A stretch of DNA of 5,591 nucleotides from a virus (IMGVR_UViG_2675903394_000001:1-5591), one strand, 5' to 3'; counted from the first letter of the stretch, positions 1 to 5,591 are shown. Numbers and translations are program-made. The notes: generated from the letters alone by a model not told the origin.

Positions 1-3410
<3,410 letters not shown>

Positions 3411-3439
<29 letters not shown>

Positions 3440-3917
3440 CCGCAAATTCCTTCATTTTTTCAGCAGATTCAACGCATTTATTAGCTCCCTTCGCAACAAG
3501 CTCTTTCAGATAAGCCAATTGTCTGCCTGTCAACTCAGGGAATTTTCTTTGCATCGAAAGCGGAATACTGTCCAGAACAGATGCCAGTTCTCCGGATAAC
3601 CGGGACAGTGCAAAAACAGAGAAAGCGGTATCAATCACTTTATGCTCTGCAACCTGGTTTTTTAACCGCTGAGCAATAGCCTGTTCTTCCGTCAGATTAA
3701 CCCTGGCCTGAAGTAGCCTTTCCTCAAGGTCATTTTCACCATCTGAAGATTTCTGGTTTTGCTGACGTCGCTCGCGATCTATCTCCAGTACAGTTTTAAC
3801 GTCATAGAAAACCTCTCTCCCCCGGCGCTCAACAGGAGGGACACCCCATTTATCAAATGCCTGTACTGAGATACCGATGGAGGAGGCCATGTCGCTTTTA
3901 TTCAATAAAAAGGCCAC
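3411..3917 (-). CDS. Nu1: Terminase small subunit, Nu1 family but strongly diverged from lambda Nu1
   Basis: The track ORF 3411..3941 (TTG start) translates to ...LNKSDMASSIGISVQAFDKWGVPPVERRGREVFYD...TAFSVFALSRLSGELASVLDSIPLSMQRKFPEL.... This aligns with lambda Nu1 (NKKQLADIFGASIRTIQNWQEQGMPV...TAFCTFVLSRIAGEIASILDGLPLSVQRRFPEL) at roughly 35-40% identity by eye. Position is immediately downstream of cos and the 3' end overlaps the gpA start, as in lambda. Start is uncertain: I favour GTG at 3917-3915, which has GGAGGA 4 nt upstream; alternatives are TTG 3905, ATG 3890 (which would truncate helix 1 of the winged HTH) and the track's TTG 3941. Confidence 0.75.
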
Positions 3918-3947
3918 AGCTCCTCCATAAACCACCGGCAAAAAAGC

Positions 3948-3959
3948 AATACAACAACC
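3948..3959 (+). repeat. cosB repeat copy 3 (R1-like), aatacaacaacc
   Basis: 12-bp motif about 30-40 bp upstream of the candidate small-terminase start codons. Confidence 0.5.
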
Positions 3960-4016
3960 CCGTTTTTTGTAAAACCCTCTGATTTTACATGCTTTTTCGT
4001 ATAAGAAAGCTCATCA

Positions 4017-4028
4017 GGTTGTTGTATT
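4017..4028 (-). repeat. cosB repeat copy 2 (R2-like, inverted), ggttgttgtatt on the plus strand
   Basis: Exact reverse complement of aatacaacaacc (3948-3959); inverted relative to the two flanking copies, like lambda R2. Confidence 0.5.
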
Positions 4029-4072
4029 TGTTTTTCTTTCTTATTACTTATCAAGTAGATATATCAAACGAT

Positions 4073-4084
4073 AAAACAACAACC
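4073..4084 (+). repeat. cosB repeat copy 1 (R3-like), aaaacaacaacc
   Basis: 12-bp motif aWacaacaacc, about 39-50 bp from the cohesive end; 11/12 identical to the copy at 3948-3959. Confidence 0.5.
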
Positions 4085-4110
4085 ACCACCTCAAAAAAAC
4101 TCATAAATAG

Positions 4111-4140
4111 CGAAAACCCGCGAGGTCGCCGCCCCGTAGC
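4111..4140 (-). other. cosN terminase nicking site; 12-nt cohesive end GGGCGGCGACCT on the minus strand = plus 4123-4134
   Basis: Reverse complement of 4099-4140 is GCTACGGGGCGGCGACCTCGCGGGTTTTCGCTATTTATGAGT, which contains the lambda cohesive-end sequence GGGCGGCGACCT and the lambda left-end continuation CGCGGGTTTTCGCTATTTATGA (recognised from memory). Confidence 0.9.
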
Positions 4141-4170
4141 CTGCCGGATCGCCGGAAAGGACCCACAAAA
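4141..4170 (-). other. Right-end flank of cosN, expected to contain cosQ
   Basis: Reverse complement TTTTGTGGGTCCTTTCCGGCGATCCGGCAG closely resembles the lambda right-end terminal sequence (...GGGTCCTTTCCGGTGATCCGACAGGTTACG) as I recall it. I cannot place the exact cosQ bases. Confidence 0.35.
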
Positions 4171-4342
4171 ATGATAATAATTTCATGTACATAATGTTCA
4201 TCACAACGATGTTGTGTACGCCATCAAACCACGACAAACAGTTAATTATGCAGCAGATATCGTATTAATTGATCCGCATCAAGTTAACGTAAAAGCAACT
4301 TCAGACAATACAAATCAGCAACACTGAATATGGGGCAACCTT

Positions 4343-4537
4343 ATGTCATCGAAGAACAGAACCCGAAGAACAACAACCCGCAACATCCGATTTCCAAACC
4401 AGATGATTGAACAAATTAATATTGCTCTTGACCAGAAAGGTTCAGGGAATTTTTCAGCGTGGGTCATTGAATCCTGCCGACGGAGACTAACGTCAGAAAA
4501 GAGAGCATATACATCAATCAAAAGTGATGAAGAATAA
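4343..4537 (+). CDS. Small ribbon-helix-helix (CopG/Arc/MetJ-like) putative DNA-binding protein, 64 aa
   Basis: ATG at 4343 with a GGGG stretch 7 nt upstream, TAA stop at 4535-4537. The protein MSSKNRTRRTTTRNIRFPNQMIEQINIALDQKGSGNFSAWVIESCRRRLTSEKRAYTSIKSDEE has a basic N-terminal arm, a predicted beta strand (RNIRFPNQM) and two helices (IEQINIALDQKG; NFSAWVIESCRRRL), typical of RHH folds. I recall an almost identical ORF in the lambda right-end region carried on cosmid vectors, differing only by conservative substitutions. Confidence 0.6.
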   Translation: MSSKNRTRRTTTRNIRFPNQMIEQINIALDQKGSGNFSAWVIESCRRRLTSEKRAYTSIKSDEE

Positions 4538-4797
4538 ACATCCCGGTTTCTTCCACCATCGCACCGGAAAAGCGACTATGAGGGTAAACCTGCGTCCGTC
4601 AGCGCAGTAAAACCCGGTGTGCATCGTTTTTGATTATTTCCACACACTCACGCAGAAGGAATTCCCCGTCGGGCTACGGTCATGGTTAATGCGGGAATAC
4701 GGCGACGATACAGCGCATGATGTGTCAGGGTTGAATACCTTTATCCGTTAAAAGGGATATCAGTTAAGTTATCCCGTGTAGGGTATAAGCCATTATC

Positions 4798-4819
4798 AAG
4801 CCCACCAGTAGATGGGCTT
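4798..4819 (-). terminator. Hairpin 2 nt past the stop of the 85-aa gene; weak intrinsic-terminator candidate
   Basis: Perfect 7-bp stem aagccca (4798-4804) / tgggctt (4813-4819) with an 8-nt loop. No proper U-tract follows on either strand (ttt on plus; GATAATGG on minus), so function is uncertain, and late read-through toward cos would be expected. Confidence 0.25.
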
Positions 4820-4827
4820 TGTAATGG

Positions 4828-5085
4828 CTACTTCGCTTTTGCTTCCGCTCGCTTACGCCGGCGCTCTTCTTTCCTCTCGGCTTTTGCCATGTCCATGAAT
4901 GCCTGCATGATCGAGTTCCGCATCATGTAGCTAACAAAGTGATGATTGACACAGCCGTTGAGGCGCAACTGCTCGCCAAACTCATCCACCGAGGCCAATG
5001 CTTCCATCATGCCCTTCTCGCCTTTCATGAACTCTGAGAAGTCGCGCCCCGCTCTGGAGGCGCATTCAATGACACGATCACTCAT
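4828..5085 (-). CDS. Hypothetical 85-aa protein with a Lys/Arg-rich C-terminal tail, translationally coupled to the upstream KilA-N gene
   Basis: Only long ORF in this interval. The ATG at 5085-5083 overlaps the upstream TGA (ATGA), stop is TAG at 4830-4828. Protein MSDRVIECASRAGRDFSEFMKGEKGMMEALASVDEFGEQLRLNGCVNHHFVSYMMRNSIMQAFMDMAKAERKEERRRKRAEAKAK. I do not recognise the family. Confidence 0.55.
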   Translation of the reverse strand: MSDRVIECASRAGRDFSEFMKGEKGMMEALASVDEFGEQLRLNGCVNHHFVSYMMRNSIMQAFMDMAKAERKEERRRKRAEAKAK

Positions 5086-5591
5086 CCCGGAAGCCCGGGG
5101 ATCGTTATCTGCAACTGGTTAGCCAGGGAGTTAATCTCAGCGACCAACACTGGCTTCGTATAGCGCCATGCCGCCAGCCCTTGTCCGCAGAAGCTCGCCA
5201 TGTCTTTCTTCTGGTCAAACTCATGACATTTCATGTTGAGCTGCGCACTTAAGCTGTTGCGATGCTGAAGTTCTCCGGTGAAGTAGTCATCGAGGACTTT
5301 ATAGGCCGCGTACTTGAACCCGGGGTTTAACCAAGCCGCATAATCGTAAGCAACAAACTTCCCGCCATATGTTCCACCATGTACACCGCGCTCAGTAAAA
5401 ACCACAGATTCGTGGTTTTTCTCCAGCTCAGCTAAGAACTCTTTGGTCTGCTTGTTTCGCAGGTAGTGGTAAGGCGATTCAGATTCACTTTTACCACTGG
5501 CTTTCCACATGTCAGTGAGGCAGATCATTCCTGATTCATCAACACTGAAGTGGTCAACAAAAACTGGCCACCGAGTTAGAGTTTTTCCAGT
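5082..5591 (-). CDS. KilA-N (APSES-like) domain protein, 5'-partial: the reading frame stays open to the right edge of the window
   Basis: Track ORF 5082..5528 begins at an internal ATG, but the 21 codons upstream (TGKTLTRWPVFVDHFSVDESG) have no stop. The region ...FSVDESGMICLTDMWKASGKSESESPYHYLRNKQTKEFLAELEK...GGTYGGKFVAYDYAAWLNPGFKYAAYKVLDDYF fits the KilA-N pattern as I remember it (N.T..cKaaGK...WLR...T.E....L ... GG..GT.....A..fA.WL.P.F). Same strand as the late genes. Confidence 0.6.
   Translation of the reverse strand, partial: TGKTLTRWPVFVDHFSVDESGMICLTDMWKASGKSESESPYHYLRNKQTKEFLAELEKNHESVVFTERGVHGGTYGGKFVAYDYAAWLNPGFKYAAYKVLDDYFTGELQHRNSLSAQLNMKCHEFDQKKDMASFCGQGLAAWRYTKPVLVAEINSLANQLQITIPGLPG

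Follow-up and report, generated by a model that had tools for sequence, protein, structure and literature searches.

Introduction

Structured elements of several kinds have been described in phage operons. HK022 put RNAs are cis-acting antiterminator RNAs of ~70 nt, formed by two stem-loops just downstream of the early promoters. Moron boundary elements, in the account of Juhala and colleagues from 2000, are reportedly promoter/terminator pairs around accessory genes. Stem-loops between cistrons or at 3' ends also act on polycistronic mRNAs, as stabilisers of the repetitive extragenic palindrome (REP) type or as RNase III sites (T7, the lambda N leader, sib), the canonical two-turn RNase III substrate being ~20 bp of coaxial double-stranded RNA, in many cases interrupted by internal loops. 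The Hfq-dependent small RNAs (sRNAs) of prophages in pathogenic E. coli (AgvB, AsxR, the EcOnc series, the Pas sRNAs and StxS) adjoin pR', Q, stx or a holin gene (PMC4104026; bioRxiv 10.64898/2026.05.13.724894). Few genomes are as well studied as those of lambda and its relatives, and the stretch from Rz to cos in them is usually taken as dispensable accessory DNA. Here, a 5,591-nt stretch of viral DNA (IMGVR_UViG_2675903394_000001:1-5591, hereafter the window) was analysed, and in it the spacer at 4538-4827, which lies between a ylcI-type gene and a gene of 85 amino acids (aa). An earlier note on this DNA (the original prediction) had described the spacer as a hairpin-rich candidate structured RNA or regulatory element. 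The part at 4541-4717, read on the minus strand (the late sense, that of late transcription), is probably a previously undescribed structured RNA rather than junk, to judge from its pattern of sequence change; it is called the element below.

Results

An autonomous module in fixed orientation

The spacer was compared by BLAST with 50,697 phage records, which gave 555 matches with recurrent breakpoints at spacer positions 180/181, 203 and 208. Positions 1-180 (4538-4717) are present in Lambda_ev110 and in Shiga toxin (Stx) phages, and the sub-part 73-180 (4610-4717) additionally in lambda, HK629 and DLP12. HK140, mEp235, HK75 and HK620-type phages carry positions 203-290, and P22-like Salmonella phages positions 254-290 alone. 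The spacer is not the single element that it had been taken for. It is a mosaic of three modules with separate histories:

4541-4717, minus strand: the element, a module of ~175 nt, also in lambda, DLP12, Stx phages and a Salmonella phage
4718-4787, no strand assigned: junction filler, delimited by BLAST breakpoints; 4740-4787 is common to HK140, mEp235 and HK620-type phages
4788-4829, minus strand: portable hairpin, an inverted repeat with 17-nt arms (4788-4804/4813-4829), 88% complementary, and an 8-nt loop

Comparisons of lambdoid genomes should treat these as three separate modules.

The spacer was matched in 3958 of 5426 complete E. coli genomes, at up to eight places per genome, and the core of the element (4610-4717) in 432 phage records at ≥80% identity. 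In order to sample loci without bias for the element, they were also found via a neighbouring protein. The element was present in 68 of 80 Rz-anchored and 65 of 80 YlcI-anchored loci, and in every one of these 133 it had the late orientation. It always lies between the lysis cassette and the packaging genes. In 45 loci it starts 14 nt past the last Rz codon, as it does in the commonest arrangement of Stx phages.

Its neighbours were compared in an alignment of eight genomes and in annotated regions, and the sequence at 4541-4717 is kept while the neighbours on both sides vary. On the cos side it is followed by ylcI (window, ev110, NT1F31), by ybcV (lambda, DLP12, PhiR70_1), by a 170-nt extra segment (WGPS8, Sp10) or by the region of the terminase small subunit (VT2-Sakai). 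On the other side, lambda, DLP12 and ev110 have the bor promoter region, the window and WGPS8 the KilA-N/hkbL cassette, PhiR70_1 another gene, and VT2-Sakai Rz directly. The K-12 prophage DLP12 carries the element in its ybcV-borD intergenic region. Most simply read, the ancestral order was Rz - element - packaging genes, and accessory genes entered later on either side.

Two single viral contigs carry two copies of the element each, 0.95-1.7 kb apart (L016, 5057-5245/6007-6195; L044, ~10790/12457-12638), which suggests a duplication or two accessory cassettes each carrying one copy. Exact lambda-type matches were also seen in Pseudomonas, Cohnella, Flavobacterium, Shewanella, Nanosynbacter metagenome-assembled genomes and other taxa (loci L129-L163), on contigs of ~48.4 kb or ~3.5 kb; almost certainly they stem from lambda control DNA that remained in the assemblies. 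A species-wide genome scan added no diversity and returned solely Escherichia and such contaminants.

Compensatory changes in a six-helix fold

The fold derived for the element consists of six helices, four of them nested in the core:

4610-4717, minus strand: core with nested P1-P4; covariance model R1 scores 126.5 bits here
4620-4627 with 4705-4712, minus strand: helix P1 (covariation, RNAalifold)
4635-4644 with 4690-4699, minus strand: helix P2 (covariation, RNAalifold)
4651-4655 with 4674-4678, minus strand: helix P3 (covariation)
4664-4666 with 4671-4673, minus strand: helix P4 (covariation; RNAalifold on core variants)
4590-4594 with 4603-4607, minus strand: helix H2', ctgcg/cgcag; CUGCG/CGCAG and CCGCG/CGCGG replace each other with compensation
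4541-4547 with 4563-4569, minus strand: helix H1'; all 7 pairs show compensatory double changes among 70 copies

A 5/7-nt internal loop lies between P1 (7-8 bp) and P2 (10 bp). In the late sense, 97.0% of the alignment cells concerned were paired among 64 distinct core variants, and 94.6% among 70 distinct full-length copies with 38 pairs. Compensatory double changes were found at 21 of the 38 pairs, compared with 7.2 ± 1.6 in shuffled controls (0/500). When partners were slid by 1-3 columns, which keeps the relatedness of the copies, only 6-11 pairs showed them. The number of further pair types was also raised (50 versus 35.8 ± 1.9 in shuffles, 0/500). Thus the covariation that the original prediction had proposed to look for is present above both kinds of control, and by its compensatory changes the element qualifies as a candidate conserved structured RNA motif. 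RNAalifold alone returned P1, P2 and P4 from the core variants, and P1, P2 and H1' from the 70 full-length copies. One compensated exchange in H1' is that between CCGG/CCGG and CCUG/CAGG, in 13 copies. The loop of H1' is conserved and purine-rich (late-sense GCGAUGGUGGAAGAAA); no kissing partner for it was found within the window. H2' is followed in the late sense by GUUUAC-CCUCAU.

The most divergent copies, SPN3UB and L090, are the most informative for the fold. In the Salmonella phage SPN3UB, P2 reads UAUCAUCGCA/UGCAAUGAUA where the consensus has UAUUCCCGCA/UGCGGGAAUA, so that three pairs in a row are compensated and one is C.A, and H1' reads UCUCGAU/AUCGAGA around a nearly unchanged loop. 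In L090, P1 reads UACUGU/ACAGUG and P2 carries a GC to AU change. Transversions are infrequent in paired columns, and the main one, CG to GC in the lambda-type P2, is a compensated double change. Single-sequence minimum free energy (MFE) folds of the SPN3UB, Sp10, lambda and window copies all drew P1 and P2. A structure-aware covariance model (CM) exceeded a sequence-only one by 25.7 bits on the held-out SPN3UB copy and by 16-18 bits on training-type copies; the two models were weighted differently, so this gain counts as weak support. An alternative helix GUGUGC/GCACAC (4617-4622 with ~4642-4647) was rejected, because it is broken without compensation in the Stx and lambda types and competes with the compensated P2.

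The structured-RNA idea therefore stands in part: the lambda-like part of the spacer holds a conserved, apparently structure-constrained noncoding element, but its main helices differ from the hairpins first named. Read directly, the sequence does contain all four of these where the original prediction had placed them (ctgcg 4590-4594/cgcag 4603-4607; gggata 4754-4759/tatccc 4770-4775; aagccca 4798-4804/tgggctt 4813-4819; cgtcg 4667-4671/cgacg 4703-4707). Among them, ctgcg/cgcag is the covarying H2', and cgtcg/cgacg lies outside any supported fold. The suspected likeness to the right end of lambda was borne out, 4610-4717 being ~81% identical to lambda, DLP12 and HK629. For the spacer as a whole, being rich in hairpins was not confirmed (MFE z-scores of -0.93 on the plus and -1.28 on the minus strand against dinucleotide shuffles).

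Strand of the fold

The strand on which the fold is kept was judged from G.U wobbles. Over all helices, 202 cells were G.U in the late sense and 58 in the opposite sense, with 94.6% versus 89.2% of cells paired. One-sided changes were mostly transitions, which give G.U in the late sense and A.C in the opposite sense. The portable hairpin and the hairpin at 4754-4775 show the same strand polarity in their few variants.

Points against a conserved late-strand RNA

A number of observations weigh against this reading. The 108-nt core had a mean z of -0.67 in the late and -0.33 in the opposite sense over 81 variants, no better than shuffles; by thermodynamic stability the element is not distinguished as a structured RNA motif. 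A trimmed 96-nt core gave -2.42 and -0.53. Because z depends on the boundaries chosen, such scores were not used as support. The window copy, with a z of +0.9, is among the weakest: the 3' arm of its P2 reads UGUGGAAAUA, which leaves a C.A and a G.U, and one arm of P2 differs from that of the nearest relatives (NT1F31, ev110) by two further changes, late-sense G to A and C to T. In this prophage the copy may be in decay. The family has a narrow range, with nothing below ~75% identity in blastn and with Escherichia, Shigella and a few Salmonella phages as hosts; therefore the independent events are few (about a dozen), and haplotype linkage could mimic part of the covariation. In other subtypes (VT2-Sakai, SPN3UB, L090) the sequences of H2' differ, although the hairpin is still formed, and the alignment there is therefore partly unreliable and partly misaligned. 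Moreover, conservation beyond the neutral expectation, the other test proposed at the outset, was not found: overall identity of the element to lambda is 80.7%, no higher than at the synonymous-type sites of the adjacent ylcI (third codon positions, 78.5%), so the signal lies solely in the pattern of substitutions.

The strand assignment has weak points of its own. Part of the first sample was retrieved by a pattern that fixes one arm. In the unbiased protein-anchored loci the wobble asymmetry holds at lower power, with counts of 67 versus 21, or 67 versus 8 without a doubtful outermost pair. A strand-biased C to T pressure on the non-template strand could be the source of the asymmetry. In the lambda/DLP12 subtype, the opposite (bor) sense folds better (z -4.06 versus -2.10). 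Finally, no transcript data, transcript ends, processing site or phenotype for the element came up in a literature search, and the Hfq-CRAC (cross-linking and analysis of cDNA) sRNA list for O157 Sakai shows no peak on it.

Several of these points would suit a neutral mosaic remnant, that is, an old intergenic stretch that persists because lambdoid phages, in recombining with one another, cross over at such shared patches, whose inverted repeats were inherited or kept by DNA template switching (quasipalindrome correction) and which has no RNA function. The sharp recurrent breakpoints at the module edges, the neutral level of identity, the unexceptional folding energies and the degenerate window copy all agree with it, and for lambda and defective prophages it is documented that homologous recombination is relaxed enough to use patches of ~80% identity (PMC3945230). 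On the other hand, the excess of compensated pairs over the slid controls, which keep relatedness, argues against it, as do the varying stem and fixed loop of H1', the rarity of transversions in paired columns with compensation of the main one, and the invariant orientation to the late operon. Moreover, the G.U strand asymmetry is unexpected under template switching. We regard the neutral remnant as unlikely, though as deserving some weight.

The folding of the lambda subtype also bears on a role of the plus strand, in which the conserved DNA would be a 3' untranslated region or terminator of ylcI/ybcV and/or an upstream regulatory region of bor. The element begins 4-10 nt past the stop codon of ylcI (window, Lambda_ev110) or ybcV (lambda, DLP12, PhiR70_1), and its plus strand has a conserved T-run, CATCGTTTTTGATTAT, at which the scan calls a terminator-like site in lambda. 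The HK629 record annotates a sigma-70 promoter, TGGACA-N15-TACAAT, facing bor in the lambda-type core (L164 1784-1810, window ~4676-4702). But this promoter is restricted to the lambda subtype: the window has CGGTCA...TACGGC, with TACGGC in place of TACAAT, and no terminator or promoter was called in its copy. The substitutions that create the lambda-type promoter lie in columns unpaired in the proposed fold. Furthermore, VT2-Sakai-type phages have no plus-sense gene on either side, the DUF3950 gene of Sp10/WGPS8-type phages has its own strong terminator ahead of the element, the PhoP-box-like bor promoter region lies outside the element, and the wobbles favour the other strand. A plus-strand role is thus considered quite unlikely.

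The bor promoter or PhoP box was also tried as the cause of conservation and rejected, since the PhoP-box-like site is in the bor-proximal module and the core promoter is subtype-specific. The site, TGTTTAGGGTTTGTTTAA, is a perfect direct repeat of PhoP-box type ~50 nt upstream of the bor start (HK629 L164 1871-1888; the same in lambda and DLP12). It lies outside the element, in a bor-proximal module that is missing from the window. borD has reportedly been placed in the Mg2+/PhoP stimulon, which fits a PhoP-box-type repeat upstream of bor.

Coding capacity

The original prediction had allowed no open reading frame (ORF) longer than about 12 codons in the spacer. This proved wrong, as four longer ones lie in or over it, all from the ORF scan:

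4617-4751, plus strand: ORF of 44 aa with a GTG start
4514-4624, minus strand: ORF of 36 aa
4524-4610, plus strand: ORF of 28 aa
4576-4647, minus strand: ORF of 23 aa

None of the four resembles a gene, and the NCBI Prokaryotic Genome Annotation Pipeline (PGAP) has no annotation at the spacer in the 30 best E. coli genome matches. A small protein could be argued for only from the 44-aa frame: it is open in 53 of 63 core variants, the translations of divergent copies look alike, and a "hypothetical protein" of 44 or 37 aa is annotated in PhiR70_1 (XSB43559.1; L001 2575-2709) and Lambda_ev110 (VUF54201.1; L002 552-665). Against it, the variable columns are spread over codon positions as 18/12/13, without third-position excess, and among 15 type pairs, non-synonymous codon differences are the more numerous in 14 and as many as the synonymous ones in the remaining pair. 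The frame has an in-frame TAG in lambda/DLP12, with a 1-nt deletion in lambda as well; its GTG start has no Shine-Dalgarno sequence, and it has no Pfam family or PGAP call. Counts of open frames in all six frames likewise spoke against coding. A protein-coding role is effectively refuted, and the 44-aa "hypothetical protein" at this locus in some phage records is probably a spurious annotation.

Comparison with known RNA families and signals

Membership in known classes was also checked. The Rfam/Infernal scan suggested at the outset matched no family: with Rfam 15 and lax filters, nothing was found in 4500-4860 of the window at E ≤ 10, and at the gathering threshold there was no match in the lambda, DLP12, VT2-Sakai, WGPS8, PhiR70_1 and ev110 loci. 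The Sp10 copy gave solely chance snoRNA matches outside the element. The element did not reach the threshold of the AgvB, AsxR, STnc100, Esr41, IsrK and Proteo-phage-1 models. A tRNA/tmRNA scan was negative. Intrinsic terminators, defined as a GC-rich stem of ≥5 bp with a loop of 3-8 nt and ≥5 U in the next 8 nt, were not found on either strand of 3900-5591; H2' is followed by GUUUAC and H1' by GAUGUUUAUU, and by eye neither qualifies under this definition. No sigma-70 site was called in the window spacer when -35/-10 hexamers at 16-18 nt spacing, conserved among homologues, were required. The element therefore belongs to none of the named families checked (Rfam families, intrinsic terminator, promoter, ORF). 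A literature search, with the subscription-journal lambda literature outside its scope, found no earlier description.

These negatives bear on a further possibility, a discrete trans-acting sRNA with host or phage targets, excised from the late transcript or started at a weak internal promoter. The layout resembles that of enterobacterial sRNAs: the 5' domain is structured, the stretch AAUAAUCAAAAAC is conserved and unpaired (A-R-N-like), and a GC hairpin has GUUU after it. A conserved late-strand -10-like hexamer (GATAAT/AATAAT) lies in the core, and O157 lambdoid prophages are rich in Hfq-bound sRNAs (PMC4104026). But no promoter was called and a -35 hexamer is missing, H2' is followed by a U-tract of just 3 nt, the H1' loop has no complementary partner in the window, and no Hfq-CRAC peak is assigned to the element, the EcOnc10/11/12 peak lying on a different adjacent unit. 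Such an sRNA seems improbable.

The EcOnc10/11/12 Hfq-CRAC peaks published for O157 Sakai (Tree et al., 2014) had been a candidate for the element and were rejected, because a +144-nt offset (calibrated on AgvB1, NC_002695.2) puts the peak on that unit. The unit lies 3' of the DUF3950 gene in Sp10 (L169 2647-2747, NC_002695.2 ~1946946-1947046, minus strand of the record) and is missing from the window. It has a promoter-like TTGAAA-18-AAAAAT and a strong terminator, ACTGCTGTG..CACGGCAGT then T7, and is probably a ~60-nt sRNA. Pas, AgvB and AsxR were rejected likewise, since their loci occupy other parts of the late region.

The portable hairpin and the junction filler

The sole exceptional stretch by folding energy in the spacer region is 4735-4845 (z -4.9 / -5.2), because of the hairpin at 4788-4829. 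The aagccca/tgggctt pair is the core of this inverted repeat, which overlaps the stop codon of the 85-aa gene. The same 36-37 nt, CATTATCAAGCCCACC(N)GTAGATGGGCTTTGTAATG, recur at 94-100% identity between at least 4 different left and at least 6 different right flanks in lambda-like, HK620/P22-like and Salmonella phages, at times twice per phage. The hairpin always stands directly past a late-strand stop codon (hkbL-like, KilA-N, a 253-aa ORF and others). Its lone arm variant, GAUGGG to GAUAGG, gives G.U in the late and C.A in the opposite sense. In the late sense it is followed by GCUUAUAC, without a U-tract. Read in the plus sense, UUUGUAAU comes after the inner stem; with 5 U of 8 this is borderline for a terminator. 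We infer that it is a 3' stem-loop moving with accessory-gene cassettes; alternatively, it is a weak bidirectional terminator. The filler holds the small gggata/tatccc hairpin at 4754-4775, which is nearly invariant and shows no compensatory change; a G to A in 2 of 16 variants leaves G.U solely in the late sense.

Layout of the window

In the window, which runs opposite to the lambda map, the right end of a lambda-like phage is connected through cos to the left end:

1514-3445, minus strand: terminase gpA
3411-3941, minus strand: Nu1 (Pfam Phage_Nu1)
4343-4537, plus strand: ylcI-type gene, 64 aa, the left flank of the spacer (ORF list; Pfam DUF3950, 9.5e-19)
4538-4827, no strand assigned: the spacer
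4828-5085, minus strand: hkbL-like gene, 85 aa, without Pfam family, the right flank (ORF list)
5082-5528, minus strand: KilA-N gene, upstream of the 85-aa gene (Pfam KilA-N and ORF11CD3)

The 12 nt AGGTCGCCGCCC at 4123-4134 are the reverse complement of the lambda cohesive end. With the cos overhang inside it, the window spans a joined cos (prophage, circle or concatemer) and not a virion end. The ylcI-type gene, annotated in E. coli genomes as ylcI or "YlcI/YnfO family", is antisense to late transcription, and its stop codon is 4 nt ahead of the element. At the right flank, HK620 hkbK/hkbL are 98% identical. With this gene layout, the minus strand is that of late transcription, which passes from KilA-N across the spacer to cos. 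That it crosses the spacer, as the original prediction supposed, is supported for the homologous region of lambda, where CRISPR interference on lambdap79 was polar-lethal while bor and lambdap78 were dispensable (PMC10695390).

A sub-threshold Rfam match to Proteo-phage-1 RNA at 1547-1628 (minus strand; 18.9 bits, gathering threshold 42; E 6.4) lies in the 3' end of the terminase large-subunit gene and is probably due to chance.

Discussion

Taken together, we tentatively propose, with slightly less than even confidence, that the minus strand of 4541-4717 is a cis-acting structured RNA module of the late transcript. By analogy with known stem-loops it would most plausibly serve as a processing site, a barrier to 3'-exonucleases or a protein landing site at the boundary between the lysis/accessory genes and the packaging genes. 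From 5' to 3' in the late sense it would present the long bipartite stem-loop P1-P2 capped by P3-P4, the short GC hairpin H2', a conserved CCCUCAU linker and the H1' hairpin with its purine-rich loop. As lambda biology suggests, the element would be transcribed within the Q-antiterminated late transcript and act in cis on that RNA. Such a role would allow the lysis/accessory mRNA and the packaging mRNA downstream to differ in stability. Accessory genes (bor, KilA-N/hkbL, ybcV, ylcI) would have been inserted on either side of the element in other phages, the portable hairpin probably does the same kind of job for late-strand accessory genes, and the remaining spacer would be recombination-junction filler.

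A bolder version is rather unlikely in our estimate. It holds that lambda (~46.87-47.04 kb), DLP12 (NC_000913.3 ~579,009-579,198, plus strand) and about three quarters of complete E. coli genomes carry a selectively maintained six-helix late-operon RNA of ~175 nt with conserved loops and a specific partner (a nuclease, an RNA chaperone, RNA polymerase, host defence or a phage protein), so that it would be a new functional RNA class of lambdoid phages and not a generic stabiliser. If the proposed RNA is real, a structured RNA common to Stx-converting phages, lambda and DLP12 would mean a further level of regulation in the late operon, with its lysis, toxin release and packaging.

Compared with the systems described above, the element resembles the REP-type stabilisers and RNase III sites in its place and predicted fold. 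Like these, it lies within a long phage operon after a gene block, without a U-tract, and has a long interrupted helix (P1 and P2, ~17-18 bp with an internal loop) accompanied by accessory hairpins. The element has no sequence relation to these stem-loops, is more elaborate, with six helices and conserved loops, and its helix is shorter than the canonical RNase III substrate. With the Hfq-dependent sRNAs of prophages it shares the phage group, the noncoding nature, the late-region "moron" junction and the richness in hairpins, but it is located between Rz and the terminase genes and has no Rfam match, promoter, strong terminator or Hfq peak. The moron boundary elements resemble the portable hairpin, which stands at the 3' ends of late-strand accessory genes, and the spacer itself is a moron junction. 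On the other hand, the portable hairpin has no late-sense U-tract and so is no canonical terminator, and the 175-nt element is tied to no single accessory gene. In contrast to the HK022 put RNAs, the element belongs to Q-dependent late operons, a long way from any promoter, and no sequence similarity to them was seen. What it would share with the put RNAs, if the proposal is right, is the principle of a cis-acting lambdoid-phage RNA built of adjacent stem-loops within an operon.

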